A stretch of 64,000 nt of DNA from the IMG/VR virus record IMGVR_UViG_3300048592_000962, positions 1-64,000 of that record; one strand, 5' to 3'. The notes under the pieces were generated by a model. The model searched no databases. It saw only the letters and a program-made list of their open reading frames with translations, and was not told where the DNA came from. The stretch's first letter is position 1. Each line of letters begins with the position of its first letter. The translations under genes were made by a program, and so were the position numbers. The DNA comes from a virus. This document shows, piece after piece, positions 16,277 to 63,565 of this stretch.

Positions 16277-16282
16277 GACGGG

Positions 16283-19349: not shown

Positions 19350-19377
19350 ACCAGCCGCAGGGATGCACGCGAATCAT

Positions 19378-47466: not shown

Positions 47467-48066
47467 ATGCCGATGCTCCGTCGATCTCACTACCAACGTC
47501 GCTACAACGCTGCGGTCGGAACGGTCGAGCCCTACCGAGGGACAGACCAGACGGTCGCGGTGATGTCGAGGCTCGTCCGCGACATACGTCCGCGTCAGAT
47601 GATTTCGACGGCGTTGGAGAGCGAACGCAGTCTGAAGGTGAGACGTCACACGGAGCAGATCGTCGGCAACATCCGGCCGAAGGACTACAGCTCCGAGATC
47701 ATCGCCATCTGCAAGTGGTGGGGCAACGCCGGCAGGTACACGAGAGATCCGCTTCACGTCGAGATGCTCCGAACACCAGAGCGTTTGATCGATGATGCGA
47801 TGGCCGGGAAGCTCGCGGCGGATTGCGATGAGTTCGCGACGGCAATCGCGGCCTGTTGCCTCGCGGTTGGGTCCAGGGCTCAGTTCGTCACCGTCGGATT
47901 TCAGCCGAGGCTTCCGGGTCAACCGAAGATTCACACGCACGTGTTCTGCCGGGCTCAGGACCCTCGAACCAAGGTTTGGTGGGTGCTGGATCCTGTCGCA
48001 GGACGCCGGACCGCTCAGATGCTGAAGCGGGTCAAGCAGTACACGATCTTCGAGGTGGATTCATGA
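47467..48066 (+). CDS. Transglutaminase-like cysteine protease (candidate maturation protease)
   Basis: Y.RDP..VE, ADCDE (Cys), HTHVF (His), WWVLDP (Asp). Confidence 0.8.
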   Translation: MPMLRRSHYQRRYNAAVGTVEPYRGTDQTVAVMSRLVRDIRPRQMISTALESERSLKVRRHTEQIVGNIRPKDYSSEIIAICKWWGNAGRYTRDPLHVEMLRTPERLIDDAMAGKLAADCDEFATAIAACCLAVGSRAQFVTVGFQPRLPGQPKIHTHVFCRAQDPRTKVWWVLDPVAGRRTAQMLKRVKQYTIFEVDS

Positions 48067-48353
48067 GTTACTACCTCCGCAAGGGACCGATAGGGTCTAC
48101 CGAGCCGATGGAGCTGTCGCCTGCGGCAAGGACCGTCTCGGTGGGGTATCGCGTGGGTGCCGCGGTGGCGACGCCCCTGCTCGTGTATCACGGCTACCGA
48201 CGCAACGAGTCGATCGGCTGGGCTGTGGTCTGGGGGCTCATCGGTGGCGGATTCTGGGTGTTCGGGGTGCCACTGGCGCTCGCTCAGGGGTTCGCGAAGC
48301 GAAAGGTGCGATCGAACGCGAGGCGTCGTCGCACGAGCAGGAGAACGCGATGA
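48063..48353 (+). CDS. Small membrane protein with SN-poly-Arg tail
   Basis: YHGYRRNESIGWA..; ends KVRSNARRRRTSRRTR. Confidence 0.7.
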   Translation: MSYYLRKGPIGSTEPMELSPAARTVSVGYRVGAAVATPLLVYHGYRRNESIGWAVVWGLIGGGFWVFGVPLALAQGFAKRKVRSNARRRRTSRRTR

Positions 48354-49198
48354 CGTACGGCGTGATGGGTTTGGGTTTGGACGCGGCGTCGATTGGCCGA
48401 GCGGTGGCCAGCGCCTACGGGACGCAGCGGCCCCCGCCGTCCGCGTCTTCGGGTTCTGCGCCACAGCAGTCGAGTTCGATGGCTTCTCAGATCGGCCGAG
48501 CGGTGGCCAGCGCCTACGGGACGCAGAAGGCGCCTCCGACAGCCACGCCCGGCACCTTGTTCACGAGATCACAGCCTGCGCGAGTCGGTCATGCGGCTGC
48601 GCAGGATCCGATTCTGGGGTCCGCGTCCCTGATGGCCGCGTCTCTTCTTCGACAGGTGTCCGGGCTCCCGGAGTCGAAGAGAATCGACGCGGCACGCAGG
48701 AAGCTCAACGAGATCCACCCTGGTCTCGGGAACACAGCCGTGTCTAAGGCGAAGGAGCTTCGCCGCAAAGGGCGTCCGTTCAACCAGGCGTTGTTCGATG
48801 GGATGCGGCTGGCGATCGCCAATCGCGTGGCCGAGTACACCGCGTCTCGCATGGGTGTCTCGGGACTCGGCGCGGTGAAGACCGAGAACTTGCAGGCGGG
48901 GTTCTGCGCGATGATCGGCGCGGGGACGGCGGGCGCGGGCATGGCGGCAGCTTTCAAGAACCCGACGGCCACCGAGGGGATTCTGTCGTCGGGGCAGGCG
49001 GGGGGTCAGATCGCAGGTTGTGGGGCTGGGACGCTGTCTCAGCAGGCAGCGGCGACGCAGGCTCAGCTGGATGCAGCAGCAGCGGCAGCGGCGGCGAGTT
49101 CGAGTTCGGGCGGGGGCACCTCGCCGTGGCTTTGGGCGGGGCTCGGGCTCGTCGCGATTGCGGGCATCGGCCTGGTGGTGGTCAAGGCGAAGTCATGA
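48350..49198 (+). CDS. Tail-anchored membrane protein (paralog group A)
   Basis: VMGLG, VSGLG; IGRAVASAYGTQ twice; C-terminal TM. Confidence 0.7.
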   Translation: MTYGVMGLGLDAASIGRAVASAYGTQRPPPSASSGSAPQQSSSMASQIGRAVASAYGTQKAPPTATPGTLFTRSQPARVGHAAAQDPILGSASLMAASLLRQVSGLPESKRIDAARRKLNEIHPGLGNTAVSKAKELRRKGRPFNQALFDGMRLAIANRVAEYTASRMGVSGLGAVKTENLQAGFCAMIGAGTAGAGMAAAFKNPTATEGILSSGQAGGQIAGCGAGTLSQQAAATQAQLDAAAAAAAASSSSGGGTSPWLWAGLGLVAIAGIGLVVVKAKS

Positions 49199-49902
49199 GC
49201 TACGCGCGTCGACAGAACCCGTCGGTGATCAGCGTGGGCCGTGCCGCCCACCGCGATCCCATCCTCGCGCAGGCATCTCTCGCCGCCGCGAAGATTCTTC
49301 GACAGGCCGTCTCCAAGCCTCGGTCGGTCCGGGAAGATTTCGTCCGAAACTCGTTGACGAGCAAGTACGGAACAGAGGCTGCTCGGTCCTACGAACGAGC
49401 GATGCGACGACTGAAGTCGAAGGGGTGGGCGAGGAATCAGTCCATCTACGATGCGATTCGACTCTCGATCGCCGATGCTCTGACACGAGAAGGACTTCTC
49501 GCAATCGACACAGCGATCAAACAGGAGATGGGCGTAGATCACGGTCTCGGGATCTCCGAGAAAGGTCGGCAGGTGGGCTGCGGCATCACGGGCGGAGTCA
49601 CGCTCGTAGGTGGGATCGTCGCGTCGATCTACGGCGGGCAGGCGGGCGGCACGGGGGCGAATGTTGGTGGTCAGCTGATCGGAACAGCGCTCGATTGCAG
49701 CAAGGCCGAGCGTGAGGCGGCTCAACGTCTCGCCGAGCAGCAAGCAGCGGCGGCTCAGGCTGAGCTGGCGCGGACGCAAGCGCTGGCCGAGCAAGAGGCC
49801 GCCCGAGGCAAGGAGACCACGAAGCGAGTTCTCGTGGTTGCGGGCATCGGCGGAGCTGTCGCGTTGGTGGGGCTCATCGGATATGCGATCGTGAAGGTCT
49901 GA
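49195..49902 (+). CDS. Tail-anchored membrane protein (paralog group A)
   Basis: VGRAAHRDPILAQAS matches VGHAAAQDPILGSAS; DHGLG; C-terminal TM. Confidence 0.7.
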   Translation: MSYARRQNPSVISVGRAAHRDPILAQASLAAAKILRQAVSKPRSVREDFVRNSLTSKYGTEAARSYERAMRRLKSKGWARNQSIYDAIRLSIADALTREGLLAIDTAIKQEMGVDHGLGISEKGRQVGCGITGGVTLVGGIVASIYGGQAGGTGANVGGQLIGTALDCSKAEREAAQRLAEQQAAAAQAELARTQALAEQEAARGKETTKRVLVVAGIGGAVALVGLIGYAIVKV

Positions 49903-49916
49903 GGCTGGAGACGACC

Positions 49917-51326: not shown

Positions 51327-51330
51327 AGCC

Positions 51331-51624
51331 GTGCGAGCAGACGATTACGTGAGCGACGACGCGAAGTACGCGCAGCAGGTCGAAGACATGAGCGGCGTGC
51401 ACCATCACCAGGCGGGCATGGCGCCCTATCCGCTGTACGGTGTGCCTCCGCTCGGGCAGGAGATGGAGGTCGCGATTCCGTTCTATCGCCGGCCGATCTT
51501 CTGCTACCCGGTCGGCATCGCGATCGGATTCGGCATCGGCTACGCGTTCTTCGAGTGGTTCAAGCCGAAGTACATGAAGTCCAACGGCAAGAAGAAGAAG
51601 TCGAAGGACGAATCGGAGGAGTGA
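51331..51624 (+). CDS. Small tail-anchored membrane protein
   Basis: PPLGQ, TM, MKSNGKKKK. Confidence 0.65.
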   Translation: MRADDYVSDDAKYAQQVEDMSGVHHHQAGMAPYPLYGVPPLGQEMEVAIPFYRRPIFCYPVGIAIGFGIGYAFFEWFKPKYMKSNGKKKKSKDESEE

Positions 51625-51625
51625 C

Positions 51626-51949
51626 GTGAGCTACAAGGTCAACAGGGCGCTCGGGTTTCAGCGCTGGGGCGTGACGAATCCGTTCGTTTTCGCTGACCTC
51701 AGCCAGCCGCAACGGCTCCGTGGCGGTGTCTCTCCAGTGGTGTTTCAGACGCAGCCTCCATCGCTTCGATCGGTTCATCTCGGTCAGCTTTCGCCGGCCG
51801 AAGAGCTGAAGAGAGCGGAGCGCATGGAGACGATTGCGATTGCGGGATTCGCGGTGAGCTTGGCCTCGCTGTATCTCGGCTGGCAGCAGTTCAGCAACAA
51901 GAAGAAGATGGCCTCCAATCGGAGGAAGCGAAGGAAGGCAGCGCGATGA
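51626..51949 (+). CDS. Small tail-anchored membrane protein
   Basis: HLGQ, TM, MASNRRKRRK. Confidence 0.65.
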   Translation: MSYKVNRALGFQRWGVTNPFVFADLSQPQRLRGGVSPVVFQTQPPSLRSVHLGQLSPAEELKRAERMETIAIAGFAVSLASLYLGWQQFSNKKKMASNRRKRRKAAR

Positions 51950-52836
51950 CGTACTACGCAACCGCCGGTCTCGGGTACGGCGTGGACATCTCTCACTACG
52001 GTGCCCCCTACCAGGGCATGCTCGGCCTTGGGCAGGCGACGTGGTCGCCGGGTCCGGGGCAGACACCGGCCGATGATCCGCGCATGGTGAAGAAGTTCGC
52101 CGTGGTGCGGTCGGTCTATCGCGTGCGGAACGTTCCGAGCGACAAGGCGGGACGCCTCGCAGATCTTCTTCTGTCCCGCGCGAGAACCCTGTTTCAGGGG
52201 AGCACGGTCCGGAAGATCGGGACGACCGGTTGGATGAACGACGGTCGTGTCGGATTCGAGGTGATTCTCGCCGCCGCGACGCGCGCCGGAGAGATCAAGC
52301 TCCGAAACGCAACGGCGCGTGACGTGGCCGGTCAGCTCGGTGGCGGAGCCGAGTTGTACGATGCGCAGACGATCATCTCGCCAACGGACTACATGCCGCT
52401 CGAAGACACTATGCTCCCGCCCGGCGAGCAGCCGGTGGCGACGATGGACTCGACTGGGACGCGCACGATCGGCGGCCTTCCGATCTGGGCCGCAGCAGGC
52501 ATCGGCGTCGCCGCGCTCGGAGCGCTCGCGTTCGTTATGACGCGGAAGAAGCCAGTAACCTCGAACCGACGTCAGCGAGCGCGACGTCGGATGAGGCCCA
52601 ATGGCCGTCCGGAGTTCGCGACCAAGGCCGAAGCCGAGTCGATGATTCGCGATCTGAACGCCACCTACAAGCGCATGGGATACCCGCCTCCGTCGCCTCC
52701 GATGCGTGCGGTACCAGATGGCAACGGCTGGAAGATCACCAGCGACCTTCTTGACTCGATCTACGGCGATAAACCGAAGAGTCGCAAGCGCAAGGTGTCG
52801 AAGAACATCTTGAGGCGACGCTCTGCCAGGAGGTGA
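51946..52836 (+). CDS. Membrane protein with a post-TM domain
   Basis: AGLGYG, MLGLG, TM, VTSNRRQR..MRPNG, extra domain, VSKNILRRR. Confidence 0.7.
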   Translation: MTYYATAGLGYGVDISHYGAPYQGMLGLGQATWSPGPGQTPADDPRMVKKFAVVRSVYRVRNVPSDKAGRLADLLLSRARTLFQGSTVRKIGTTGWMNDGRVGFEVILAAATRAGEIKLRNATARDVAGQLGGGAELYDAQTIISPTDYMPLEDTMLPPGEQPVATMDSTGTRTIGGLPIWAAAGIGVAALGALAFVMTRKKPVTSNRRQRARRRMRPNGRPEFATKAEAESMIRDLNATYKRMGYPPPSPPMRAVPDGNGWKITSDLLDSIYGDKPKSRKRKVSKNILRRRSARR

Positions 52837-52839
52837 GTC

Positions 52840-53382
52840 GTGAGCTACTCGCACCTTGGGTCTGCGCTGATCGGCCCGCAGAGAGCCACGAGCAGCGCGA
52901 AGAAGCCGGTTCTTCGCGTGAACCCGAAGCTCAAGCTTTCGCTGTCGCCATCCGCGATCAAGCCGAAGTCGGTGCTCGTGGTCGGCCCGAGCATTTCGTC
53001 TGCGCCGAAAGCTCCGGTGGTCACAGCCAAGCCCCCGCCTCCGGTCTTGTTCTTGCCGGCTCCGAAGCCGCCGGTGATGTCGACTCCTCCGCCCGCCGCG
53101 CCCCCGCCTGCGGATTCGACTCCGAAGCCGCCGGCAGATGTGTGGTCGGATTGGGAGACGGGGTCGCCGGAGATGCCGGCGGCAGCTGAGCAATCTGTCT
53201 ACGAGCCTCCTCCGCCAGAGGTTCAGGAGCCATCGCAGGCCGAACCGCTTGTGCCTGCAAAGTCGCTGCCGTGGGCGTGGATCGCTCTCGGGCTGACGGC
53301 CACTGCGCTCCTCGGGTACGCGGTGTTCAAGCGCAAGCCCGTGTCGCCGAACCGTCGGCGTCGTCGGAGGTCTCGTCGATGA
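52840..53382 (+). CDS. Pro-rich tail-anchored membrane protein
   Basis: MSYSHLG, TM, VSPNRRRRRRSRR. Confidence 0.7.
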   Translation: MSYSHLGSALIGPQRATSSAKKPVLRVNPKLKLSLSPSAIKPKSVLVVGPSISSAPKAPVVTAKPPPPVLFLPAPKPPVMSTPPPAAPPPADSTPKPPADVWSDWETGSPEMPAAAEQSVYEPPPPEVQEPSQAEPLVPAKSLPWAWIALGLTATALLGYAVFKRKPVSPNRRRRRRSRR

Positions 53383-54095
53383 GTTATGCGCTTGGACAGG
53401 CGGCCGATTCCGCTTTGAAGGAGCAGACGGCCTTTGCGGAACAGACGTCGCTGACGGAGTTCTCCGACGGCTCGATCGAGGTGAGCAGTCCGAAGGTTGT
53501 GGTCTCTGCGCAGTACCGCGGTCAGTTCAGCGTGTACACGCAGCAGGGAACGAACCCGCCGTACATCGTCGTGTCTCGCGCGGATGCGCAGGCGAGAGGA
53601 GTGCCGATTCTGGCCGATCCGTGGGCCGCTTATCAGGCGGGTCAGAAGTTGCCCGCGCCGATGGCGGCTCAGGTGAAGGCGAGCGGCGTGCCGATTCCTC
53701 AGGCGGGCAAGCGGTGGATCCCGTGGGCGCTCGTGGGCGGCGGCTTGGCTGTCGCGCTCGGCCTTGTGCTCATGGTGTCGTTCAAGAGCATGAAGCCGAA
53801 TCGTCGTCGACGTCGTCGGCTAAGAGAGAACATGAGTCGTCGCGTTCCCTACGACAGCAAGCCGGTCACCAAGCATGGCAAACACGGGACCATGTATTTG
53901 TACGAGATCGAGTTCGAGGAGGATGAACGCGACGACGGGAGGCCGGAGTGGATGAGACGCTGGCAGACGTATGCTTACGATCAAGAGCATGCGATCGAAA
54001 GCTTTTACGAGTCATACGACCGCTCAAATCCGGGTGCGTCGTTGGATCTTCCGGTGAAAGTCGTTTCCGCGAAGCGGGTGATGAGGCGTCAATGA
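53379..54095 (+). CDS. Membrane protein with a post-TM domain
   Basis: MSYALGQ, TM, MKPNRRRRRRLREN, then an acidic/aromatic domain. Confidence 0.7.
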   Translation: MSYALGQAADSALKEQTAFAEQTSLTEFSDGSIEVSSPKVVVSAQYRGQFSVYTQQGTNPPYIVVSRADAQARGVPILADPWAAYQAGQKLPAPMAAQVKASGVPIPQAGKRWIPWALVGGGLAVALGLVLMVSFKSMKPNRRRRRRLRENMSRRVPYDSKPVTKHGKHGTMYLYEIEFEEDERDDGRPEWMRRWQTYAYDQEHAIESFYESYDRSNPGASLDLPVKVVSAKRVMRRQ

Positions 54096-54652
54096 GCTAC
54101 CTGAGCGGTTACGGCGGAAGGCGCGCGTTCGGTGGGTTTGGGTACGGCTCGCTGGGCTCCGCCTTTCAGATCGGACCTACCAGCGACTCCCTGCGCTCCC
54201 TCCAAAGAGAGCTGGCGCGACTCGGCTACCTTCAGGGCGACAACGGTCCGTTCGGCGCCGATGGGTACTGGGGCCCTCGAACGGCTCTGGCTCTTCGGCA
54301 GGCGGCGACGTACTTGCGCTGGACGGATGCCCCCTACACGCCGACGAATGCGGACTCGTTGCGGTCCGGGTCGGTTGAGGTTCCGGACGATCTGATCGCT
54401 CGAATCCGAGCGGCGTCTCCTGACCCGAACGCAAGCCGCGCCGGGTCCGACCAGCCCGCGTCGATCGTCGACCCTGTCGACCCGGCGCCGTCTACCTCAC
54501 CGGTTCCTTCGACGCGTCTCGCGCGAGCCCCGTGGGTTGTTCCGGTGGCGGTGGGAGGGGTCACGCTGCTGGCGGTGGGTGCGCTCCTGCTGACGCGTGG
54601 GAAGAAGCCGGTGACATCGAACCGACGTCGGCGAGCGCGACGGCGCCGCTGA
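54092..54652 (+). CDS. Peptidoglycan-binding (PGBD) tail-anchored protein
   Basis: LQRELARLGY...ADGYWGPRT..AL; LSGYG; TM; VTSNRRRR. Confidence 0.75.
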   Translation: MSYLSGYGGRRAFGGFGYGSLGSAFQIGPTSDSLRSLQRELARLGYLQGDNGPFGADGYWGPRTALALRQAATYLRWTDAPYTPTNADSLRSGSVEVPDDLIARIRAASPDPNASRAGSDQPASIVDPVDPAPSTSPVPSTRLARAPWVVPVAVGGVTLLAVGALLLTRGKKPVTSNRRRRARRRR

Positions 54653-54685
54653 TTTCGGGTACCGTAGGGCCAAGGCTGGGCTGGT

Positions 54686-55381
54686 ATGATCTACACCGAC
54701 GAAGAACTGAGCGAGATCGAGGGCTACGACGAGGACGACGAGGAGTCCGCCGCTCCGATGGTGGCGGCTCACGGGTCCTCGGGCGCATCCATGCAGGCAC
54801 CCGGAGCGATCCCGCTCTACCCACTTTCCCTGGCTCACCTTGGGCAGCAGCCGTCACCAGCGGCGGGAATGCTGGGCTTCGTGAAGAAGAAGGTCGGTCC
54901 GCTGCCTGTGTGGGCGTGGGCCGCGCTGGGCGTGGGTGTTGCGGGCGGCGGATGGTACTTCCTCAGTCGTCGCAAGAAGTCGGAAGGATCTGGCGAGGAA
55001 GATGCTGGGGGTCTCGCACAGAACGACGGCGGAGGAGATTCCGCACCGGCCGGCTGGTCGCCGAGTCGGTCGAGCTTCGCGGCTCAGTTGCAGCGTTTCT
55101 TCGACAAGAAGGGTCTCACGCAAGCGGTCGTTGTCTGGCATGACGCCGAGGACGCGCAGCGCAAGGGGAAGCTGAAGTTCGTTTCCCCGTTGATCAACGT
55201 GCAGGTCAAGGACAAGTCGGTGAAGGTCGACGCAGCGCTTCAGAAGTTCTGTCGTCGCGAAGGCCTGAACCCGACGCAGCACGACGATGGTTCAATCGGC
55301 CTCTACCCGCACACGGGCAAGAGGGGCAAGGCATGGGAAGACTACGTCGACGCACTGCGTGACGATGGTCAGCAAGTGTGA
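54686..55381 (+). CDS. Membrane protein
   Basis: HLGQ; KKVGPLPVWAW TM. Confidence 0.65.
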   Translation: MIYTDEELSEIEGYDEDDEESAAPMVAAHGSSGASMQAPGAIPLYPLSLAHLGQQPSPAAGMLGFVKKKVGPLPVWAWAALGVGVAGGGWYFLSRRKKSEGSGEEDAGGLAQNDGGGDSAPAGWSPSRSSFAAQLQRFFDKKGLTQAVVVWHDAEDAQRKGKLKFVSPLINVQVKDKSVKVDAALQKFCRREGLNPTQHDDGSIGLYPHTGKRGKAWEDYVDALRDDGQQV

Positions 55382-55388
55382 GGAAACC

Positions 55389-55835: not shown

Positions 55836-56671
55836 TGCGATCTCTTGGACAGGTGCCGGCGCCGACTCTTCTCACGGGTTACTCGGCGCTCCAGACAGCG
55901 ATTATCGCCTTCGAGTCGAACGCTCTCACGCGCGCGGTGGTCCGCGCCTCGTCGGGCATTCCGGCGAACGTGATCGTGAAGGCCTTTGAGACGGCGCGGA
56001 CGAAGGCGTCATCGGCTCAGCCGCGAGAGATGTCGGAGACGGACGTCTTCGCGATGCTGCTGGGAACGCTCACCCAGGCTCGCACAGATCTCGTCCGCGC
56101 CAAGCTGTTCATGTACTCGACCGCGTCGGGGAACACAGCGGCGAGAGGAAAGTTCGAGCAGATACTCGCGGCAGATTTGCAGATGCTCCAGCAGGTCAGC
56201 AACATCTTGTCGCGAATGGTCGCCGAGGGCGCGATGCCGACTCTTACGAGACTCGTCGGAGGCACATCGGGGCTCGGGTTCATCACGATCGCGATCTCAG
56301 CCCTGCGGCTGGTGTGGTCGGCGATTCAGGCGTGGCAGGTGATTCAGGTTCGTCGTGAGAGGTATCTGCGTGAGCAGATTGCTCTGTGCGAGGAGCTGAC
56401 GCGTCGCGGGACGCCGTGTACACCGCAGCGGGTGGCGGAACTTCAGGCGGAGCTTCAGCAGCTCACCGATACGCCTGCGGCGAGGTTCTTGGACAGCGTC
56501 GGCGAGGGCATTCGCAACGTGACGAGCCCGTTCGACAACGTGGGCCAGGGGATCGGCAAGGGGCTGAAGATCGGCATTACCACGCTCTCGGTGGGCGTCG
56601 GACTCGTCGCGCTCTGGTGGGCGTGGCCTCTGATCAGCTCGACCAGGCGCAAGCGACGCGAGGCCGAGTGA
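55832..56671 (+). CDS. Helical membrane protein
   Basis: SLGQ, TSGLG, two hydrophobic segments. Confidence 0.65.
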   Translation: MMRSLGQVPAPTLLTGYSALQTAIIAFESNALTRAVVRASSGIPANVIVKAFETARTKASSAQPREMSETDVFAMLLGTLTQARTDLVRAKLFMYSTASGNTAARGKFEQILAADLQMLQQVSNILSRMVAEGAMPTLTRLVGGTSGLGFITIAISALRLVWSAIQAWQVIQVRRERYLREQIALCEELTRRGTPCTPQRVAELQAELQQLTDTPAARFLDSVGEGIRNVTSPFDNVGQGIGKGLKIGITTLSVGVGLVALWWAWPLISSTRRKRREAE

Positions 56672-57183
56672 TGCTTGCTCAGGTGCAGTTCAGCCCGCAC
56701 CCGCCTCCTCCCAAGGCGCCGAACGTGGGCCTCATGGTCGGCTGGGCAGCCGTGGTCGCCATGGCGGGAGGCATCTTCTACTACACGCTTCGAGGTCCGG
56801 TTCGAGCAAACCGGCCGCGAAGAAATCCGAAGCTCGTCGGCAATCCCGACGTACGTGACGCAGTCAGCGATGCCGTTCGTTTTCGAGGCGTGACACTGCG
56901 GTCGGCGGGAGCGCCATCTGGCGTTGTGAAGGCGTCCAAGGCTCTCCCAGAAGGCGTGTATCGCATCGCGAGCAGCGGCGACGTTACGGTGTATCGTAGC
57001 CAGGATGTTCCCTCTTCGTTGATCACGTCCGTTCGTATCGCGGCTACCAAGTCGAGCGAGTCTCAGGTGTGGCTCGTGAAGGTGGCTCGTTCGCCTGCTG
57101 GTCGACTGAAGCGCGTTCCGATTCGTGGATACAGGAAGCGTCGAGGCCGCGTGGAGACAGTGTTTCGCATCGAGGAAGCATGA
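56671..57183 (+). CDS. Membrane protein with a basic post-TM domain
   Basis: TM, then VRANRPRRNPKLVGNP. Confidence 0.6.
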   Translation: MLAQVQFSPHPPPPKAPNVGLMVGWAAVVAMAGGIFYYTLRGPVRANRPRRNPKLVGNPDVRDAVSDAVRFRGVTLRSAGAPSGVVKASKALPEGVYRIASSGDVTVYRSQDVPSSLITSVRIAATKSSESQVWLVKVARSPAGRLKRVPIRGYRKRRGRVETVFRIEEA

Positions 57184-57767
57184 CCTCCAAGCGGACATCC
57201 CGTCGCTTCGTGAAGAGACGAACCTCGCGACTTGCGAGAAACGGCAAATCATCTCGTCGATCTACTCAGAACAAAGACGTTCGTCGACTCATTGATCTTG
57301 CGGAGTCGCAGGGTTGGGCCATCGAGACGACGGGTGGAAATCACTTACGGTTCATTCCTCCGGATCCCACCAAGCCGATGGTGCATACGTCGAGCACGCC
57401 CTCCGACCGCCGGGCGGTGCAAAATCTTGAGGCGCAGCTGAGGAAGTCGGGCTTGATCGTCGCCAAGCAGGACGACAAGAAGTCGCCGAAGAAGAATCCG
57501 TCGAGCGAGCCGTGGCTCATGCGGGATTACCGTGCGGGGATGATGTTGGAGTTCATCCTCGGTGATCGAAACGCGGGGGTGCCTCCCGGCACTGTCGCGG
57601 TTGTCGATGCGGTTCGAGGCGGCGGTCTGGACGTCACCATCATGGACTCGTACGACCCGTCGTTGGTCGGCGAGCGTGTGGCGGTGGAGCTGGTCTACGA
57701 GCGGGATGGGCGGCTGCATCGAACGACGCCAGATCAGCTGGCGCTCTACTGGCGCACGGTGGAGTGA
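57180..57767 (+). CDS. HicA-like domain protein with an Arg-rich leader
   Basis: LIDLAESQGW...GGNHLRF..P...SSTPSDRRA..N...LRKSG. Confidence 0.65.
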   Translation: MTSKRTSRRFVKRRTSRLARNGKSSRRSTQNKDVRRLIDLAESQGWAIETTGGNHLRFIPPDPTKPMVHTSSTPSDRRAVQNLEAQLRKSGLIVAKQDDKKSPKKNPSSEPWLMRDYRAGMMLEFILGDRNAGVPPGTVAVVDAVRGGGLDVTIMDSYDPSLVGERVAVELVYERDGRLHRTTPDQLALYWRTVE

Positions 57768-58138
57768 TGCGGAGCCGAGGTGCAGGTTGTACGATCCGAG
57801 CGGCCAGCACGGGTCGAGTTCTTCTATTGAGGAGAAGCCCCACGTGCCCGCCGGGCGGAGTTTGGTCGATTCCAGCGGGCGGTGTAGATCGCGGCGAAAC
57901 GGCCATCTTTGCGGCCCTTCGTGAGTTGGAGGAGGAGACCGGTTTCTGCGGCGACGTGTCAATACTGTTTCATTCGCAGGACAGTCAGTTTCTCAATCTT
58001 GCTTGCGAGGTGAAGTCTGAATTCCGCGTAAGGCTGAACTGGGAGAACGACGCAGCGGGGTGGTTCGACATCGATGACTTGCCAGATCCGTTGTACCGGG
58101 GACTTCGTCCGTTCCTGAGGCGAGTCGTCTCGTGGTAG
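57764..58138 (+). CDS. Nudix hydrolase
   Basis: GGVDRGETAIFAALRELEEETG (Nudix box); LNWE. Confidence 0.85.
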   Translation: MMRSRGAGCTIRAASTGRVLLLRRSPTCPPGGVWSIPAGGVDRGETAIFAALRELEEETGFCGDVSILFHSQDSQFLNLACEVKSEFRVRLNWENDAAGWFDIDDLPDPLYRGLRPFLRRVVSW

Positions 58139-58157
58139 AGTCGGTGAGGAGGCTTTC

Positions 58158-58508
58158 GTGGCGCTGTACTCCGTGTGGAACTGGGACCGAAACGCCTGGG
58201 CGATCTATCGCACCAGCGCTCCCGTGAGCGTCGGCGACGATGCCTTGCCGCCGAGACCTCGTGGAGTCGGGCCGATAGGCGCTGACCCGGACACGCAGGT
58301 GAAGCCGTTGCCTCTCGGCGCTCGCTTCGTCGAGTTCAGCCACGTCGCCCGAGGAGAGATTCGGCGCAAGCCGGGGCACATCGCTGACCTCGGTGACGAC
58401 GCTGGTCGTTCGACGGCGACAGGTACGCGCTGGGGAGCCCTCGCGCTCGGTGCCGCTCTGGCATCGGGCGTCTGGTACCTCGCGACGAGGAAGAGGAGGC
58501 AGTCGTGA
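58158..58508 (+). CDS. Small tail-anchored membrane protein
   Basis: YSVWNW..., ADLG, TM, RKRR. Confidence 0.65.
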   Translation: MALYSVWNWDRNAWAIYRTSAPVSVGDDALPPRPRGVGPIGADPDTQVKPLPLGARFVEFSHVARGEIRRKPGHIADLGDDAGRSTATGTRWGALALGAALASGVWYLATRKRRQS

Positions 58509-59290
58509 TTCGTCGTCGTATCGCTCGACCGGGCCAAGAGCTTCAGGCGAACGGAGCGTCCCCCTTGCGAGGCCGGGCGGCCATGGACACGCGCTTCGGC
58601 ACTGAGGTCGACCCGGACGAGGTCTCGGGTCGCGCCGGCAAGAGTGTCGAGGGCGCGATGGGCCGGTACGAAGTGTTCCACGCGAAATCGCCGCTTCGCG
58701 TGGTCGACCTCGAACACGATCTTCCGCGCGACTGGGTGTGCGTCGGCGAGTGCCTTGCGGTCATGTACCGCACCGACAAGTGGCACGAGGATGGCGACGA
58801 CGAGGACTACAAGCATCTGCACGATGAGGGGGACGATCGTCCGTACCGAGTCGGACGAGGCGTGAAGTTCTACGAACCGAAGACCGAGTGGGCGCGGTCT
58901 ACGATCGACGGGAAGCCTCGTCCCCGCAAGAACCCGCCCAAGAGTCAGCGCCTGCCCGTGGGCCTTCCCGAGGCGGTGACGCTGCTGGGGTATTGCCTTG
59001 GCTTCTTCGTTCGACTGCATCCCGAACACGCACCTCTTTCGGAGGCGGACTACAACGCCGCGATGGACTTGATGTCCGCTGCGAGCGCTGGAGACGAAGA
59101 CGCTCGGCAGATGCTCGACGAGATGGCTATCTACGAGGTGAACCCGCGTGGCTGCTGGCTGTTCTGTTCGCCCAAGGGAGACATGCTGACGGTCTACTCG
59201 CCGGACGAACAGCCGGACGGGTCGTCCGGGTTCCTCTGCGCGATGGCCGGTGGCAAGTTGCGAGTGCTGAAGGACGGGATCGACGGTTGA
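58505..59290 (+). CDS. Hypothetical protein
   Basis: YRTDKW..YKH.H; RKNP; ends GIDG. Confidence 0.6.
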   Translation: MIRRRIARPGQELQANGASPLRGRAAMDTRFGTEVDPDEVSGRAGKSVEGAMGRYEVFHAKSPLRVVDLEHDLPRDWVCVGECLAVMYRTDKWHEDGDDEDYKHLHDEGDDRPYRVGRGVKFYEPKTEWARSTIDGKPRPRKNPPKSQRLPVGLPEAVTLLGYCLGFFVRLHPEHAPLSEADYNAAMDLMSAASAGDEDARQMLDEMAIYEVNPRGCWLFCSPKGDMLTVYSPDEQPDGSSGFLCAMAGGKLRVLKDGIDG

Positions 59291-59293
59291 GTC

Positions 59294-59722
59294 ATGTGGC
59301 AGGCGTTCAACAACGTTCTTGAGAAGGGCGGCATCGTCGCCGCTCTTTTCTTTGTTGTGATCGCAGCCAGTGGCTTTGCGATCTGGTCCCTCTGGAAAAG
59401 CAGCAGAGAGCAGCAGAAAGAGTTTCTCGATAAAATCGAGAAGCTTACCGCGTCACATGACAAGGCCATCGCCGAACTCACGAAGGCGCATGCCGAGGCG
59501 GTTGAAGCGTTTTCACAAGAGGTTGGCGCTCAGATCGAGGCTGTCGTACTCAAGAACGACGAGCTTCAGAAGAGACTAGACGCCATTCAAGAGCGCCGCG
59601 TGGTGGACACGAAGGACAACGCGGAAAGGCTGATGTCGTACATCAAGCATTTTGACGCGTTCGTGCTGAAACTGGAGAGCGCGATCGACGTGCTTCTTCG
59701 CGCCGGTCGATCAGGAAGGTGA
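59294..59722 (+). CDS. TM plus coiled-coil protein (holin-like)
   Basis: N-terminal TM followed by a coiled coil. Confidence 0.45.
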   Translation: MWQAFNNVLEKGGIVAALFFVVIAASGFAIWSLWKSSREQQKEFLDKIEKLTASHDKAIAELTKAHAEAVEAFSQEVGAQIEAVVLKNDELQKRLDAIQERRVVDTKDNAERLMSYIKHFDAFVLKLESAIDVLLRAGRSGR

Positions 59723-59725
59723 GCC

Positions 59726-59965
59726 ATGTCCAGCGGATATCGTTTGGGGCGTGACGCGGCGGTAGAGGATCGAGTTGATCTTCGCGCGTCGGAGGGCGAC
59801 GAGACATCGGCGCTGGATGTCGAGCTGGAGCGAGCGCTGAGGCGGTCCAAGGAGAACATGGACCGGGTGGTCGCCAAGGCCGATCGTCTGCGACGCGAGC
59901 TACGAAGGCCGGACAGCTACCCGCAAATTCGCGCCGCTCTCACAAAAGAGAAACTTGGCGCTTGA
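59726..59965 (+). CDS. Small hypothetical protein
   Basis: 79 aa. Confidence 0.45.
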   Translation: MSSGYRLGRDAAVEDRVDLRASEGDETSALDVELERALRRSKENMDRVVAKADRLRRELRRPDSYPQIRAALTKEKLGA

Positions 59966-59991
59966 CTCCCTGGCGCGGGTCGTTCTAGGCT
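59962..59991 (+). promoter_or_regulatory. sigma70-type promoter of the core/capsid operon
   Basis: TTGACT-N18-TAGGCT. Confidence 0.5.
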
Positions 59992-60056
59992 CTTCCTCGA
60001 AGACCTGGGGCGCTCCTCCCCGCTGCTGATGCAGGTCGATAGGGAGCAGTGCGTCC

Positions 60057-62771
60057 GTGGGTCTGGCTTACAAGCGGAGTACGACCAAAACGGCCCGTGC
60101 CTACGAGCGATCGAGGGGCATGGAACCGAATGGTGGTCTTCGGCCGAATCCCGGCGTGACTGCGCTCATGACAGTCAATCCGCGACGTGGTCGTGGTCGC
60201 GTGCGTGAGAACCCGTTCCAGTGGATCGAGGGTCGAGGGCAGCGACATCGGCACGTTTCGAAGCCCTATGCGTCGCTGGATGCGGCTCGTGGGTGGAAGA
60301 AGCGGAGTCCGGCTACCAAGGCACGTCTTTACCCCGTCGATGAACGTGGGACGATCGTCTCGCGTCCCCTCAGCTCGAAACTCACAGGAAACAGAGGGAG
60401 TAGCAGCATGGCGTACAACATCGGTGCACTCCGAAGGGCGATGCGATCGAACCCCAGGGGTACGGGCTCGTCCATGTCCGAGCACGCCTCGACGGGCGGA
60501 GTGTCGGTGCGCTCGAACGGCCGCAAGCGTCGGAAGGCGTCGCGCAAGGCGAGCCGTCGTCGCGTCAGTCGCAACCCGAAGTACGTGGTGGTGAACCGCA
60601 AGCGACGCTCGCGCAAGGCGAGTCGTCGTCGGGTGACGCGCAACAGCCGTCGTCGCCGCAGCCGCCGGACTTCGGTGCGTCGGAACAGTCGTCGTCGTCG
60701 GAGTCGTCGCACGTCGATGCGTCGCAACAGCCGTCGTCGCCGCAGCCGCCGGACTTCGGTGCGTCGGAACAGCCGTCGTCGTCGGAGTCGTCGTCGGATC
60801 TCGCGCAACCGGTCGAGCCGGTCGAGCGCGTCGACGGCGGCGTACCGCAGCGGCTACGATCGGATCTTCGGCAAGAAGAAGAGGTCGTCCAAGCCCGCGT
60901 CGGCTCGCAAGACGTCGAAGAAGAGCGGACGGAAGTCGTCGCGCCCGATTCGCACGATCGAGATCGAGGAGACGGTCACCGAGATCAAGCCGCGTCGTCG
61001 CAAGTCTTCGCGGAAGTCCTCGCGGAAGTCGTCCGCTCGCAAGTCGAGCCGTCGGTCGTCCGCCAGGGGTCGTCGTTCGTCGAGGAAGAGCGGCCGTCGG
61101 TCGCGTCGTTCCTCGAAGAAGGGCGGCTACTACTTCGGTCGTCGTCGGGTCAGCAAGCGCGGGAAGGAGTACCTCGACAAGTACATCACCCGCGGCTACA
61201 TGCCCTCGGTCGCGCCGGTGTACCGCACGGGCAAGTCTCGTTCGGGTCGCCCCGCCGTCCTCGTGTACCCGCCGGGTACGGGTCACGGTCGTCTCTCCTC
61301 GCGGAAGGGTCGTGGTCACACGTCCAAGGGTCGCGGCAAGCGTCGCGTGAGCGCTCGGGCGTACGGCGCGAGCTTCTTCGGGGCGAGGAAGCGCCGCGTG
61401 ACGGCGAACCGCCGTCGGAGCCGTCGTCGCAGGAGCCGTCCGGGTCTCTACGCGAATCGTCGGCGGAGCCGTCGTCGCCGGAGCCGTCGGTCGAGTCTGC
61501 GTCCCAACCGTCGCAGGAGCCGTCGGAGCCGTCGTCGCCTGACCCGCAACCTGCTCACGACGAGCAAGGCGCGGTTCTCGGGTTCGGGCAAGAGCCGCAA
61601 GGGTCGCCCGACGGGCAAGACGTTCCAGGTGCTGATGTACGGTCCGAAGTCCAAGACCAAGAGCGGTCGGCGGATGTCGGGCTACCCGGTCTACGTTCCG
61701 GGTCACGTCGTGGAGCGTGGTGCGGTGCGTCGCTACCGGAAGCTCGGTGGTGCGGCTCTGGACGCACATCGTCGTGCGACCAGCGCGGGATACCGCGAGA
61801 GGAAGAAGTACCCGAAGCGTCGCGGCGTGACGCGGAACAGCCGCAGGAGCAGGAGGACCAGCATGCGTCGGAACCCCAGGTACGTGGTGGTCAATCGCCG
61901 CCGTCGCAGTCGTCGAAGCAGCCGCAAGGCACGGCTTCGCAGGAACCAGACGGTGTTCGGTGCCGACCTCACGCGCGACGTGCTCAAGCCGGTCGCCGGT
62001 GGCACGGCGGGCTTCGTGGCGGCTCGTCTGCTCTCCAACGGTCTCGCCAACGTCGAGATGCTTCGCGGCATCCTCGACAAGGACAAGAGCGCGGCGGAGG
62101 CGGGCAACACGAAGATCGCGGCGAACCTGCTCGGGATCGTGGCGACGCTCGGCCTGGCCCGGAAGGTCAAGGTCATCGGCGACAACCGCGGTGCCCTCGT
62201 CACGGGCATGGGTCTCGCGCTCGCCGATCGTCTGCTCGCGAAGTTCGCGGGTGACTCGGGCTACCTCTCGGGCTTCGGCGAGTACGTCTCGCAGCCGCTC
62301 GGGGAGTACGTCTCGCAGCCGCTCGGCGCCTACGTCTCGGACCCGTCGATGGGCGAGTACGTCGACCAGCCGCTCGGCGCCTTCGAGGCGGCGGCCGGCA
62401 TGGGCACGCTGTACGCGGCGGCCGGCTACCACGAGGGCATCGATCCCGCCGATCAGGGCTCGGTCGACGGTCTCATGGACGTCATGGAAGCGGCGGCCGG
62501 CATGGGCAGCCCGATGATGTACGCGACCGCGGGCATGGGCACGCTGTACGCAGCGGCCGGCATGGGCGCCGAGGCGGATGCGGAGCTTCAGGCGTACTAC
62601 GCCAGCCAGCAGCCGCCCTTCGTCTCGACGCAGACGCCCACCGATCTCGCGCGTCCCGTCACGCACGTGATGCCCCACGACAAGCGCGTTCCGACGTCGC
62701 TCGTCACGCCCGAGGGCAAGGGCTACGCGGGTGGTCTCTTCGCGCGCAACCTCTTCGCGGGGATGTTCTGA
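60057..62771 (+). CDS. Protamine-like Arg/Ser-rich protein with membrane domain (candidate core protein); alternative start at 60408
   Basis: About 600 aa of R/S/K-rich sequence with RRNSRRRRSRRTS repeats, then a hydrophobic domain, LSGFG, GEYVSQPL and AAAGMG repeats. Confidence 0.75.
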   Translation: MGLAYKRSTTKTARAYERSRGMEPNGGLRPNPGVTALMTVNPRRGRGRVRENPFQWIEGRGQRHRHVSKPYASLDAARGWKKRSPATKARLYPVDERGTIVSRPLSSKLTGNRGSSSMAYNIGALRRAMRSNPRGTGSSMSEHASTGGVSVRSNGRKRRKASRKASRRRVSRNPKYVVVNRKRRSRKASRRRVTRNSRRRRSRRTSVRRNSRRRRSRRTSMRRNSRRRRSRRTSVRRNSRRRRSRRRISRNRSSRSSASTAAYRSGYDRIFGKKKRSSKPASARKTSKKSGRKSSRPIRTIEIEETVTEIKPRRRKSSRKSSRKSSARKSSRRSSARGRRSSRKSGRRSRRSSKKGGYYFGRRRVSKRGKEYLDKYITRGYMPSVAPVYRTGKSRSGRPAVLVYPPGTGHGRLSSRKGRGHTSKGRGKRRVSARAYGASFFGARKRRVTANRRRSRRRRSRPGLYANRRRSRRRRSRRSSLRPNRRRSRRSRRRLTRNLLTTSKARFSGSGKSRKGRPTGKTFQVLMYGPKSKTKSGRRMSGYPVYVPGHVVERGAVRRYRKLGGAALDAHRRATSAGYRERKKYPKRRGVTRNSRRSRRTSMRRNPRYVVVNRRRRSRRSSRKARLRRNQTVFGADLTRDVLKPVAGGTAGFVAARLLSNGLANVEMLRGILDKDKSAAEAGNTKIAANLLGIVATLGLARKVKVIGDNRGALVTGMGLALADRLLAKFAGDSGYLSGFGEYVSQPLGEYVSQPLGAYVSDPSMGEYVDQPLGAFEAAAGMGTLYAAAGYHEGIDPADQGSVDGLMDVMEAAAGMGSPMMYATAGMGTLYAAAGMGAEADAELQAYYASQQPPFVSTQTPTDLARPVTHVMPHDKRVPTSLVTPEGKGYAGGLFARNLFAGMF

Positions 62772-62821
62772 GTCGAGGTCTCTGACCTCTCTCTGAGCAA
62801 ACCAGATTTCGGAGCAAGCAC

Positions 62822-63565
62822 ATGGCACGTCGTCGCAGGACTCGCCGAAGCTCGCGTCACATCCGCATGAACAGCCGTCGTCGGCGTCGTCGGAGCAGCC
62901 GCCTCTCGCTGAAGATGAACCGACTCGTTCGGAACATGTTCGGGGCGGACATCGCCAAGGACGTCGTGATCCCGGTTGCGGGCGGCGTCGTGGGCTTCGT
63001 CGCCGCTCGCTACCTCGGCAACATGCTGGCGGAGAAGGGGCTGATCAGCTCCGACCCTCGTGTCGGCAAGTCGCTCGCGGCGGCGGCAGGCATCCCGGCC
63101 ACCTTCTTCCTCGCGAAGAAGAGCCCGGTGGTGTCGCGCAACAGCAACATGATCGCGCTCGGCATGGGCCTGGCGGCGGCGGAGGGGTGGCTGCGAGACA
63201 TGCCTCTGCTCGGCGGCAGCCCGGCGGCGGCGGCGTTGACCACGCCGGCTCCGGCTCCGGCTCCGACGGGTGATGGCACGTCCGGCATCGGTGCCTACTA
63301 CAGCGCGCCGATGGCTGGTCTCGCCGACTACTACTCGGAGGGGATGCTCGGCGGTCTCGGGGCCGATCCGGGCAACCAGGGCGCGGTCGAGGACGTGATG
63401 GACGCGATGGAGTCCGTTTCGACGGTGACTCCGACGGACCTGGCGATGCCGGCTCCGAATCGTCCGGAGGTGGCTCCGATCGCCGAGCCGTTCGCGGCTG
63501 GCGACAAGGGGTACGCGGGCGGCTTGTTCGCGCGCAACCTCTTCTCGGGGATGTACGGATCCTGA
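62822..63565 (+). CDS. Shorter paralog of the core/membrane protein
   Basis: FGAD..DV..PVAGG..GFVAAR and C-terminal KGYAGGLFARNLF.GM are shared with 60057-62771. Confidence 0.75.
   Translation: MARRRRTRRSSRHIRMNSRRRRRRSSRLSLKMNRLVRNMFGADIAKDVVIPVAGGVVGFVAARYLGNMLAEKGLISSDPRVGKSLAAAAGIPATFFLAKKSPVVSRNSNMIALGMGLAAAEGWLRDMPLLGGSPAAAALTTPAPAPAPTGDGTSGIGAYYSAPMAGLADYYSEGMLGGLGADPGNQGAVEDVMDAMESVSTVTPTDLAMPAPNRPEVAPIAEPFAAGDKGYAGGLFARNLFSGMYGS

Follow-up and report, generated by a model that had tools for sequence, protein, structure and literature searches.

The window, the whole stretch of 64,000 nucleotides analysed here, covers positions 1 to 64,000 of the complete 160-kb virus record IMGVR_UViG_3300048592_000962. 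Gene calling gave 23 co-directional plus-strand genes (here g1 to g23) between 47467 and 63565, most of which overlap as ATGA. Nine of them start M(S/T)Y (at 48063, 48350, 49195, 51626, 51946, 52840, 53379, 54092 and 55389), and one further gene, at 55832, starts with the variant MMRSLGQ. The genes and their features are as follows.

47467..48066 (+), g1, 199 aa: predicted transglutaminase-fold protein with a Cys-His-Asp triad, first gene of the run
48063..48353 (+), g2, 96 aa: MSYY.. tag, helix, KRKVRSNARRRR tail
48350..49198 (+), g3, 282 aa: MTYGVMGLG tag, internal VSGLG, C-terminal helix; paralogue of g4
49195..49902 (+), g4, 235 aa: MSY tag, internal DHGLG, C-terminal helix
49917..51326 (+), g5, 469 aa: no N-terminal tag; internal Y-x7-GLGQ about 30 residues before the C-terminal hydrophobic segment (conserved as GMGQ in the homologue), VYKNRKK after it
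51331..51624 (+), g6, 97 aa: helix plus YMKSNGKKKK, a Lys version of the tail
51626..51949 (+), g7, 107 aa: MSYKVNRALGF tag (GTG start), helix, KKKMASNRRKRR tail; conserved in relatives
51946..52836 (+), g8, 296 aa: MTYYATAGLGYG tag, second site YQGMLGLGQ, helix, KKPVTSNRRQR, then about 90 more residues
52840..53382 (+), g9, 180 aa: MSYSHLGS tag (GTG start), Pro/Lys-rich linker, helix, RKPVSPNRRRRRR tail
53379..54095 (+), g10, 238 aa: MSYALGQ tag, helix, KSMKPNRRRRRR, then a 100-aa domain on the Arg side
54092..54652 (+), g11, 186 aa: MSYLSGYG tag, PG_binding_1 domain, helix, KKPVTSNRRRRARRRR tail
54686..55381 (+), g12, 231 aa: internal YPLSLAHLGQ before a hydrophobic segment, SRRKK after it, conserved C-terminal domain
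55389..55835 (+), g13, 148 aa: MSYHGLGQ tag, PG-binding-like domain, helix, KRRRG
55832..56671 (+), g14, 279 aa: variant tag MMRSLGQ, internal TSGLG, two helices, STRRKRR tail
56671..57183 (+), g15, 170 aa: N-terminal helix, then PVRANRPRRNP and a C-terminal domain
57180..59965 (+), g16 to g21, untagged members of the same gene run: g17 is a NUDIX hydrolase (57767-58138), g18 (58158-58508) has a C-terminal hydrophobic end and RKRRQS, g19 (58505-59290) is conserved in all relatives, g20 has an N-terminal helix, and g21 starts MSSGYRLG
60057..62771 (+), g22, 904 aa: about 600 residues of polycationic sequence built from x-x-N-R-run units, including four tandem SRRRRSRR(T/R)(S/I)xRRN units of 13-14 aa, then hydrophobic helices, then a domain with repeated Y-x(4-6)-[LM]G that ends GYAGGLFARNLFAGMF; homologues in all relatives
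62822..63565 (+), g23, 247 aa: N-terminal Arg runs with IRMNSRRRRRR, a hydrophobic domain, Y..G repeats, C-terminal domain paralogous to g22
63747..64000 (+), start of the most conserved gene of the clade (260 aa, running to 64529 of the genome), a candidate major structural protein

In Pfam searches, g11 matched PG_binding_1 with an E-value of 4.1e-5 and 24.1 bits, above the 23-bit cut-off, whereas g13 scored 22.6 bits for PG_binding_3 and 20.6 bits for PG_binding_1, both just below the cut-offs. The NUDIX match of g17 had an E-value of 6.6e-20. The 260-aa protein encoded from 63747 was found at 59-77% identity by tblastn (62-81% by blastp) in 12 IMG/VR loci. A wider search gave 252 homologues, none of which is named, and these fall into 96 clusters at 50% identity. 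No Pfam, PHROG or PDB match was found for this protein.

The first-pass annotation had described more than a dozen consecutive genes sharing one architecture, with a Gly motif before a membrane helix and an Asn plus basic run after it. This observation held up: every Gly motif that it listed is present, and so are its eight Asn-basic runs, although two of these (VTSNRRQR and VRANRPRRNP) are looser than it had written. However, not every gene in the stretch has the architecture, since g1, g16, g17, g19 and g21 have no predicted helix or tag. In addition, its designation of the products as virion proteins was an assumption, not an observation.

Next we asked whether the motifs exceed chance, as enrichment over composition-matched controls had been named beforehand as a test. 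In the whole genome, 15 genes (9 in the cluster, plus one variant) start M-(S/T)-Y followed by a hydrophobic-Gly within about 12 residues, where about 0.09 are expected. The N-terminal pattern [ST]Y-x(0-8)-[LMIF]G occurs at 13 gene starts against 0.09 expected from its internal frequency (Poisson P about 4e-24, and still 3e-15 if five alternative starts per gene are allowed), and no true gene start in the minus arm has it. In within-protein shuffles of the cluster, G[LM]G was observed 20 times against 4.8+-2.1 (maximum 12 of 300), [VMLI]xxN[RK]3 10 times against 0.2 (maximum 2) and Y-x(0-8)-[LM]G 27 times against 11.5+-3.2. The rest of the proteome showed no excess of G[LM]G (33 against 27.9). 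The tag goes with membrane helices, which are found in 12 of 15 tagged genes against 32 of 207 other genes (Fisher P 2.8e-7). After the helix, many proteins carry basic-basic-x-V/M-x-x-Asn-Arg(4-6), mostly at the C-terminus. Among 33 cases of a membrane helix followed by a basic run, in this genome and six relatives, Asn sits directly before the run in 15, while Asn makes up 2.3% of residues.

Codons differ between instances of both motifs, so selection acts on the protein. The motifs recur in every related viral contig examined, although the protein bodies have diverged beyond BLAST recognition; the exception is a distant relative that keeps the N-terminal tag but lacks the Asn-Arg tails. The two motifs are therefore separable and do not form one obligatory two-part code. 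Internal sites are also conserved at 35-50% identity, namely GLGQ/GMGQ in g5 and xGLG in g3 and g4. We also considered that there is no code at all, and that the motifs are leftovers of common descent from one expanded gene family or compositional chance in a GC-rich, Arg-rich genome. The genome is indeed 10% Arg, and the helices look alike (P-x-W, Gly-rich, aromatic end), so that the C-terminal module could be one inherited cassette. However, chance is rejected by the shuffles and background frequencies, only g3/g4 and g22/g23 are detectable as paralogous pairs, and the motifs are held in relatives while the rest of each protein diverges. This explanation is very unlikely.

To examine the first gene of the run, we combined profile searches, an alignment of homologues and structure prediction. 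The protein g1 scored 18.1 bits (E-value 3.4e-3) against Pfam Transglut_core (PF01841), below the 23-bit cut-off, while 5 of 25 homologues matched at E<=0.01 (best 1.9e-5) and one database homologue carries PF01841. C120, H158 and D175 are invariant in 25 sequences at 61-75% identity. The AF2 model had a pLDDT of 79, and its top Foldseek hits in the PDB were the putative Cys proteases 3isr and 3kd4, LapG, PNGase/Rad4 and TGases, with a probability of 1.0 to 3isr, 3kd4, LapG and TglA. Viral Transglut_core clusters in the ESM Atlas matched with TM-scores of 0.65-0.71. These results indicate a transglutaminase/papain-like core fold for g1. Its disordered N-terminus carries a conserved Y..YN.AVG. 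The gene is single-copy in the six genomes searched whole (this one and five further genomes). Where the DNA between it and the conserved 260-aa gene was read (three of the five, plus this genome), it lies upstream of 8-12 tagged genes.

The first-pass annotation had likened the Gly motifs to adenovirus protease sites, (M/L/I)xGx-G, and an adenovirus-type maturation of core and membrane precursors in a PRD1-adenovirus-lineage virus with an internal membrane would be the corresponding explanation. LSGFG, LSGYG, MLGLG and LGGLG fit the adenain consensus, there is an Arg-rich core-like protein, and many small membrane proteins lie in one late-looking operon, as in PRD1 and PM2. However, only these 4 of more than 20 sites fit. 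No Peptidase_C5 (PF00770) match was found in six frames, no adenain was among the fold hits of g1, and its triad has the order Cys-His-Asp, whereas adenain has His-Asp/Glu-Cys. Profile searches for other protease families (S77, PF03420; S78, PF04586; ClpP, PF00574) gave no match either. The link to adenovirus protease is not supported and, for the protease, this explanation is already largely refuted; as a whole it is very unlikely.

We also searched for hallmark genes of known virus lineages. No match was found to terminase, portal or HK97-type capsid families (PF03237, PF17289, PF04860 and PF05065), and no structural PHROG was found in 30 large proteins, although divergent versions cannot be excluded. 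No FtsK-type packaging ATPase (PF01580) was found, and the only canonical Walker A motifs in long (100 aa or more) reading frames that belong to recognised enzymes are those of the UvrD helicase and a MoxR-like AAA protein. For the 260-aa protein, the AF2 model reached a pLDDT of only 30, no P2_N match was found, hhalign of the family against PM2 P2 gave 3% probability, and the Atlas feature lead was only 0.76. The reading of the stretch as a virion operon therefore rests on synteny with this one very conserved protein.

Taken together, the interpretation of the first-pass annotation, an undescribed sorting or maturation system in which Arg tails tie an internal membrane to the DNA and the Gly and Asn motifs are cleavage or targeting sites, is partly supported. 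The two motifs are real, conserved and protein-level, they sit on opposite sides of the hydrophobic segment, and the first gene co-occurs with the tagged genes in every relative searched. The proposed role of the Arg tails, on the other hand, runs into a topology problem. By the positive-inside rule the tails are cytoplasmic, and in a PRD1-type assembly the cytoplasmic face becomes the capsid-facing side, not the DNA-facing side.

In our preferred but tentative reading, the stretch is a long, translationally coupled operon of an uncultured clade of large viruses (140-300 kb), contigs of which are often binned with Planctomycetota or Lentisphaerae. What the analysis itself establishes is that about 15 proteins per genome, unrelated in their bodies, carry the same N-terminal tag M-(S/T)-Y-x(0-10)-hydrophobic-Gly, often followed by Gln, that the Tyr...hydrophobic-Gly element recurs at conserved internal linker positions and in tandem in g22 and g23, and that the tag goes with single-pass membrane helices, many of which are followed by the Asn-Arg unit that, in series, also builds the 600-residue polycationic part of g22; the position of the single-copy core gene g1, with its predicted fold and triad, at the head of the tagged genes belongs here as well. 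The functions are our inference. The tag would be a leader that sorts these proteins into one assembly, working like the 10-residue capsid-targeting sequence of T4 internal proteins, and g1, acting as a papain-like peptidase, would recognise it and probably cut after the hydrophobic-Gly pair (hydrophobic P2, Gly P1), as a hydrophobic residue followed by Gly suits the S2/S1 specificity of clan CA peptidases. The helix would anchor the protein in a lipid bilayer, either of the particle or of the cell being entered, and the Asn-capped Arg tail would bind the polyanionic genome. The set may thus link DNA, membrane and, through the PG-binding domains in g11 and g13, the cell wall. Peptide cleavage, nucleic-acid binding, presence in virions and an internal membrane are all inferred from sequence and predicted structure alone.

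Some observations speak against this reading, among them the lack of any recognisable capsid, portal, terminase or FtsK-type ATPase family and the distant relative that has tags but no Asn-Arg tails. The spacing between Tyr and the Gly pair varies from 0 to 26 residues, which is unusual for a protease site, and about half of the tags have Gln after the Gly, which would also suit a transglutaminase acyl donor. Transglutaminase-fold enzymes can also be cross-linkers, deamidases, acyltransferases or cell-wall endoisopeptidases, and the pseudomurein endoisopeptidase PeiP of phage psiM2 appears among the fold hits, although weakly (E 0.057, TM 0.37). It is possible, though we consider it unlikely, that the Tyr...hydrophobic-Gly element is a short linear motif for docking without cleavage, which binds one common partner (the 260-aa protein, a scaffold or a chaperone) and recruits many membrane proteins to the same assembly. 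In that case g1 would do something else, such as cell-wall endopeptidase activity during entry or exit, or cross-linking of the Gln that often follows the Gly. The tandem repeats in g22 and g23 suit multivalent binding better than processing, PG-binding domains are in the same operon, true transglutaminases are among the fold hits, and in T4 targeting works without processing when residue 10 of the tag is Asp (PMC9026906). On the other hand, hydrophobic-Gly is a typical P2-P1 pair for papain-like enzymes, g1 has no signal peptide or helix and is not obviously periplasmic, g1 is as conserved and as syntenic as the tagged set, and Gln is absent from half of the tags.

Another unlikely possibility is that these are infected-cell membrane proteins and not particle components. 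They would insert into the host inner membrane with the Arg tail acting only as a strong positive-inside topology and stop-transfer signal, and their N-terminal domains would work in the periplasm (wall binding, lysis timing, exclusion of other phages). The N-terminal tag would then be an export or insertion signal, or partly a translation-initiation context. The PG-binding domains of g11 and g13 lie N-terminal to the helix, which fits an N-out, C-in orientation, basic residues always lie on the C-terminal side of the helix, and no virion hallmark gene was recognised nearby. Most tags are encoded by RTG-AGC-TAC, and five of the nine tagged starts in the cluster overlap the upstream stop as ATGA, which forces an A-starting second codon. 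However, Ser is also encoded by TCG or AGT, Thr replaces Ser, and the downstream hydrophobic-Gly is conserved, so the tag is a peptide feature. A topology signal does not need a fixed Asn, nor V/M at position -3, and the same unit builds a 600-residue polycation that cannot be a topology signal. Moreover, insertion in this orientation would place the tag and N-terminal domains of 100-550 residues, some of them Lys-rich, outside without a signal peptide, which also counts against our preferred reading if the proteins insert into the host inner membrane. The operon also runs straight into the most conserved gene of the clade.

A more far-reaching reading, which we consider unlikely but not excluded, is that these are particle proteins of a deep, undescribed virus lineage of PVC-type bacteria that has none of the known capsid or packaging genes. 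Its particle would be built around a lipid-protein-DNA core, in which a protamine-like polycation (g22) and a dozen membrane proteins are held on the genome by Asn-capped Arg tails, and are sorted and then trimmed by a transglutaminase-fold protease through a universal N-terminal Ser-Tyr...Leu-Gly leader. That would be a new virion architecture with its own two-signal sorting code. If the membrane and DNA-binding readings hold, the clade, which is widespread, wholly uncharacterised and without a cultured relative, would be a new way of organising a large bacterial virus particle. The tag gives a simple sequence rule for listing the probable assembly or particle proteome of these genomes, in which ordinary annotation finds no structural gene, and it offers a compact candidate targeting tag and a candidate site-specific protease.

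Comparison with known systems showed partial similarities in each case. Adenovirus core maturation (adenain with pVII and pX/mu) resembles the proposed system in its Arg-rich DNA-condensing proteins and Gly-containing cleavage motifs, but differs in the fold and triad order of the enzyme and in most sites. In the internal-membrane phages PRD1 and PM2, a tight late operon, seen in the PM2 gene map, encodes many small single-pass membrane proteins next to the main structural gene, and wall-active functions are anchored by a helix. However, the genome studied here is 10-15 times larger, no double jelly-roll capsid or FtsK-type ATPase was detectable, and no shared N-terminal tag or Asn-Arg tail is known to have been described for PRD1 or PM2. 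C-terminal tripartite sorting signals (LPXTG/sortase, PEP-CTERM/exosortase, GlyGly-CTERM/rhombosortase) also place a conserved module of motif, helix and basic cluster on many unrelated proteins, but here V/M-x-x-Asn lies 8-10 residues after the helix, at the start of the basic run, and not before it; no sortase-type enzyme was identified and the substrates lack signal peptides. LapG and other bacterial transglutaminase-like cysteine proteinases (BTLCP) have a Cys-His-Asp triad on a transglutaminase fold, and LapG cuts between small residues (Ala108/Ala109) near the N-terminus of its substrate, at a site conserved across substrates encoded next to the enzyme (PMC3032545). LapG is periplasmic and calcium-dependent, acts on one giant adhesin and is regulated by LapD/c-di-GMP, whereas g1 has no export signal, would have about 15 candidate substrates and shares only modest TM-scores with LapG (0.42-0.48).

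Shared leader peptides that sort many unrelated proteins into one viral assembly are known in detail only for T4-like phages. The capsid-targeting sequence (CTS) of T4, on basic internal proteins, has 10 residues with separate targeting and processing positions, and the prohead protease gp21 has a site matching its own cleavage logo near its N-terminus (PMC9026906), as the conserved Y..YN.AVG in the disordered N-terminus of g1 would be in our reading. As in T4, a short tag of roughly this length at the extreme N-terminus is shared by proteins that are otherwise dissimilar and fast-evolving. In our reading the tag is also bipartite, with early residues including a Tyr followed by a processing site, and the basic cargo would travel with DNA. 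In contrast to T4, no T4-like capsid, portal or terminase was recognised, the enzyme has a predicted transglutaminase/papain-like Cys-His-Asp fold instead of that of serine protease family S77, the inferred cleavage site is hydrophobic-Gly and not L/I-x-Glu, and the cargo proteins have membrane helices.

The virus record is a single 159,872-bp contig with overlapping ends, of which the window is the first 64 kb, and it is listed in IMG/VR with direct terminal repeats and a CheckV completeness of 100%. The GC content is about 63%. The strand of the genes switches near 44 kb, and from 44.1 kb onward a long plus-strand run of tightly packed genes begins, many of which overlap by ATGA. Between 47467 and 63565 we called 23 plus-strand genes (g1 to g23). 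Nine of these start M(S/T)Y and have a hydrophobic-Gly pair within about 12 residues, and one more has the variant MMRSLGQ. A NUDIX hydrolase gene (57767-58138, plus strand; Pfam E 6.6e-20) is embedded in this run of tagged membrane-protein genes and is conserved there in relatives. When the whole genome was searched, the tag was found on 15 genes, the others being at 71077, 85437(-), 86848(-), 95097, 96859 and 145375(-). None is a true start in the minus arm.

To test whether this could be expected by chance, the pattern [ST]Y-x(0-8)-[LMIF]G was counted at internal positions, where it occurs at 18 of 46,038. Therefore 0.09 gene starts are expected to carry it, whereas 13 were seen (P about 4e-24). 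In within-protein shuffles of the cluster, G[LM]G was observed 20 times against 4.8+-2.1, Y-x(0-8)-[LM]G 27 times against 11.5+-3.2 and [VMLI]xxN[RK]3 10 times against 0.2, while the rest of the proteome showed no G[LM]G excess. The possibility that there is no code at all is thus considered very unlikely. The tag goes with predicted membrane helices, which are present in 12 of 15 tagged genes against 32 of 207 others (Fisher P 2.8e-7). Two of the three exceptions (96859 and 145375) have hydrophobic ends just under the threshold. The observation made in the first-pass annotation, a Gly motif before the membrane anchor and an Asn plus Arg-run after it in a series of genes next to a putative Cys protease, is confirmed by these data.

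Next we studied the C-terminal module. A total of 36 instances from this genome and six relatives were aligned on the Asn. The consensus is a Gly/Ala/Val/Leu-rich helix, followed by two basic residues at -6/-5, V/M/L at -3, Asn and then four to six Arg, as in the tail KKPVTSNRRRRARRRR. Most instances end within 15 residues of the stop codon. Among 33 cases of a helix plus a basic run, Asn directly precedes the run in 15, although Asn makes up only 2.3% of residues. The same unit in series builds g22, of which the first 600 residues include NP(K/R)YVVVN-RRRR elements and the following repeat:

60630-60810 (+), inside g22: four tandem units of 13-14 aa (39-42 nt) reading SRRRRSRR(T/R)(S/I)xRRN, of which the three full 14-aa units read SRRRRSRRTS(V/M)RRN.

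The units have alternating codon versions, suggesting recent unit duplication inside the polycationic domain. In g22 and g23 the order is reversed, with Arg runs first, then hydrophobic helices and then Tyr...Gly repeats. So in every protein the two motifs lie on opposite sides of the hydrophobic segment.

Several lines of evidence indicate that selection acts on the peptide. Codons for Arg, Asn, Ser and Val differ between instances, and an explanation by a nucleotide-level repeat or cassette was rejected for this reason. Recent paralogy was also rejected except for g3/g4 and g22/g23, which are the only detectable paralogues. In related IMG/VR contigs of 139-297 kb the tagged small proteins mostly give no BLAST hit, yet the tags and tails are there, for instance MSYAGLGQ, MSYRGLGQ, MSYAQAMAGLGQ, VAKNRRRVRRN and VAANRRRRARR. 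Internal sites are kept in homologues at 35-50% identity, namely GLGQ/GMGQ in g5, xGLG in g3/g4 and YPLSLA(HLG)Q in g12, where Ala can replace Gly.

The first gene of the run, g1, encodes a protein with a predicted transglutaminase fold. It matches Transglut_core only weakly (18.1 bits against a 23-bit cut-off), but 5 of 25 homologues match, the best at 1.9e-5. C120, H158 and D175 are invariant and the AF2 model is confident (pLDDT 79). A Foldseek search with this model found putative cysteine proteases (3isr, 3kd4), LapG, PNGase/Rad4, TglA and transglutaminases, and the ESM Atlas gave viral Transglut_core clusters at TM 0.65-0.71. BFVD added unnamed viral proteins and, weakly (E 0.057, TM 0.37), the pseudomurein endoisopeptidase of phage psiM2. 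A role of g1 as wall hydrolase or cross-linker, with the tag serving for docking without cleavage, is a possible but less likely alternative to processing. In sequence searches of g1 against PDB, hits to designed Kelch-repeat proteins (SAKe) came from summing six weak repeat matches and were rejected as artefacts. A complex prediction of g1 with the alignment of N-terminal tags scored 0.00, which counts neither for nor against binding. The disordered first 23 residues of g1 (47467-47540, plus strand) carry a conserved Y..YN.AVG, which resembles the Tyr...hydrophobic-Gly element of its putative substrates. Profile searches for Peptidase S78, S77, C5 and ClpP gave no hit, and no other protease family was found. 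The link to adenovirus protease, which had been proposed in the first-pass annotation, is rejected, and adenovirus-type maturation is considered very unlikely.

g1 is highly conserved, at 58-100% identity over 120 database clusters, and it is single-copy in all five further genomes searched (E 1e-83 to 1e-107). In the three records where the DNA between g1 and the conserved 260-aa gene (the gene after g23) was retrieved, 8-12 tagged genes lie there. The two motifs are separable. The distant relative G003, in which the 260-aa protein is 62% identical, has eight consecutive MSY...Gly genes with C-terminal helices (L040, positions 4000-21000 of G003 contig C1), but these have ordinary short basic ends instead of Asn-Arg tails. 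The N-terminal tag plus g1 is therefore the core of the system, whereas the Asn-Arg tail is a feature of the subclade studied here.

We also searched for genes that could identify a particle. In the text below, L001 to L006 are the stretches that together with the window make up the whole genome. The following features were noted:

63747-64000 (+), continuing to 64529 (L001:747-1526): the 260-aa protein, the most conserved of the clade, with 252 homologues and 96 clusters at 50% identity, none annotated.
65853-67690 (+) (L001:2853-4690): a PAPS-reductase-like gene (phrog_2302, 8.8e-85) overlapping a ParB-like nuclease gene (phrog_2159, 4e-68), about 1.3 kb downstream of the 260-aa gene, which may be a DNA-modification pair.
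127265-130486 (-) (L004:7265-10486): a SNF2-family helicase interrupted by an intein with a LAGLIDADG homing-endonuclease domain (Hint_2, LAGLIDADG_3 and Intein_splicing matches).
L005:4189-5226 (+) and L004:2764-3792 (+): a tyrosine integrase (phrog_1, 5e-31) and a Mu Gam-like end-protection protein (1.2e-30); the element may be temperate.

The 260-aa protein matched nothing in Pfam, PHROGs or PDB sequences. An AF2 model from a 9-sequence alignment had a pLDDT of 30 and was unusable; a deeper alignment holds 38 diverse sequences. A weak lead to PM2 P2 from an Atlas feature search (0.76) was not supported by the P2_N profile or by hhalign, which gave 3%. In this DTR-complete record, profile searches for Terminase_6N/6C, Phage_portal, Phage_capsid and FtsK_SpoIIIE gave no hit, and no terminase, portal, HK97-type capsid, FtsK-type ATPase or known prohead protease family was detected. 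PHROGs found only non-structural functions in 30 large proteins. The only canonical Walker A motifs that fall in recognised enzymes belong to a UvrD helicase and a MoxR-like AAA protein. An Atlas search with the 774-aa upstream protein (44754-47078) returned no usable hit. When g1, g19 and the N-terminal 117 residues of the ORF at 63648 (the start of the 260-aa gene) were searched by tblastn against 50,697 GenBank phages, nothing meaningful was found, and literature searches for membrane-containing or Arg-tailed large phages gave nothing relevant. Homologues of the 260-aa gene lie in MAG bins of Planctomycetota (two), Lentisphaeraceae, Deltaproteobacteria and Acidobacteriota, and Phycisphaeraceae and Bifidobacteriaceae are also among the bins of contigs carrying this gene (L028-L033). 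Host assignment is uncertain, but this is a weak hint at PVC hosts. PG_binding_1 in g11 and a near-threshold PG-binding domain in g13 indicate a host with a peptidoglycan wall.

All the data show a real, conserved and unusual motif system in an uncharacterised virus clade. The interpretation in the first-pass annotation, however, is only partly supported, and its 'virion proteins' and 'internal membrane' remain assumptions. Cleavage of the tag, peptidase activity of g1, membrane insertion, binding of the tails to nucleic acid and a location in particles are inferred from sequence and predicted structure. We tentatively favour a leader-and-anchor model, in which the N-terminal tag would sort these proteins into one assembly, g1 would trim it after the hydrophobic-Gly pair, and the helix plus Asn-capped Arg tail would anchor the protein in a bilayer and hold it on nucleic acid. 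The topology deserves attention. Arg tails cannot cross an energised inner membrane outward, so three pictures remain possible on sequence data alone. The membrane may form around Arg-tail-bound DNA. Alternatively, the proteins may travel inside the particle and insert into the next cell's membrane from the periplasmic side, where the membrane potential favours inward movement of the tails and the PG-binding domains would stay at the wall. In the third picture they are infected-cell membrane proteins, a rival explanation that we regard as unlikely.

In this view the tag would work like the capsid-targeting sequence of phage T4, which is 10 residues long with separate targeting and processing positions, sits on basic DNA-associated proteins and is removed by the head protease (PMC9026906). 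A hydrophobic P2 with a small P1 is the usual preference of papain-like enzymes, and the transglutaminase-like protease LapG cuts between two small residues near the N-terminus of its substrate (PMC3032545).
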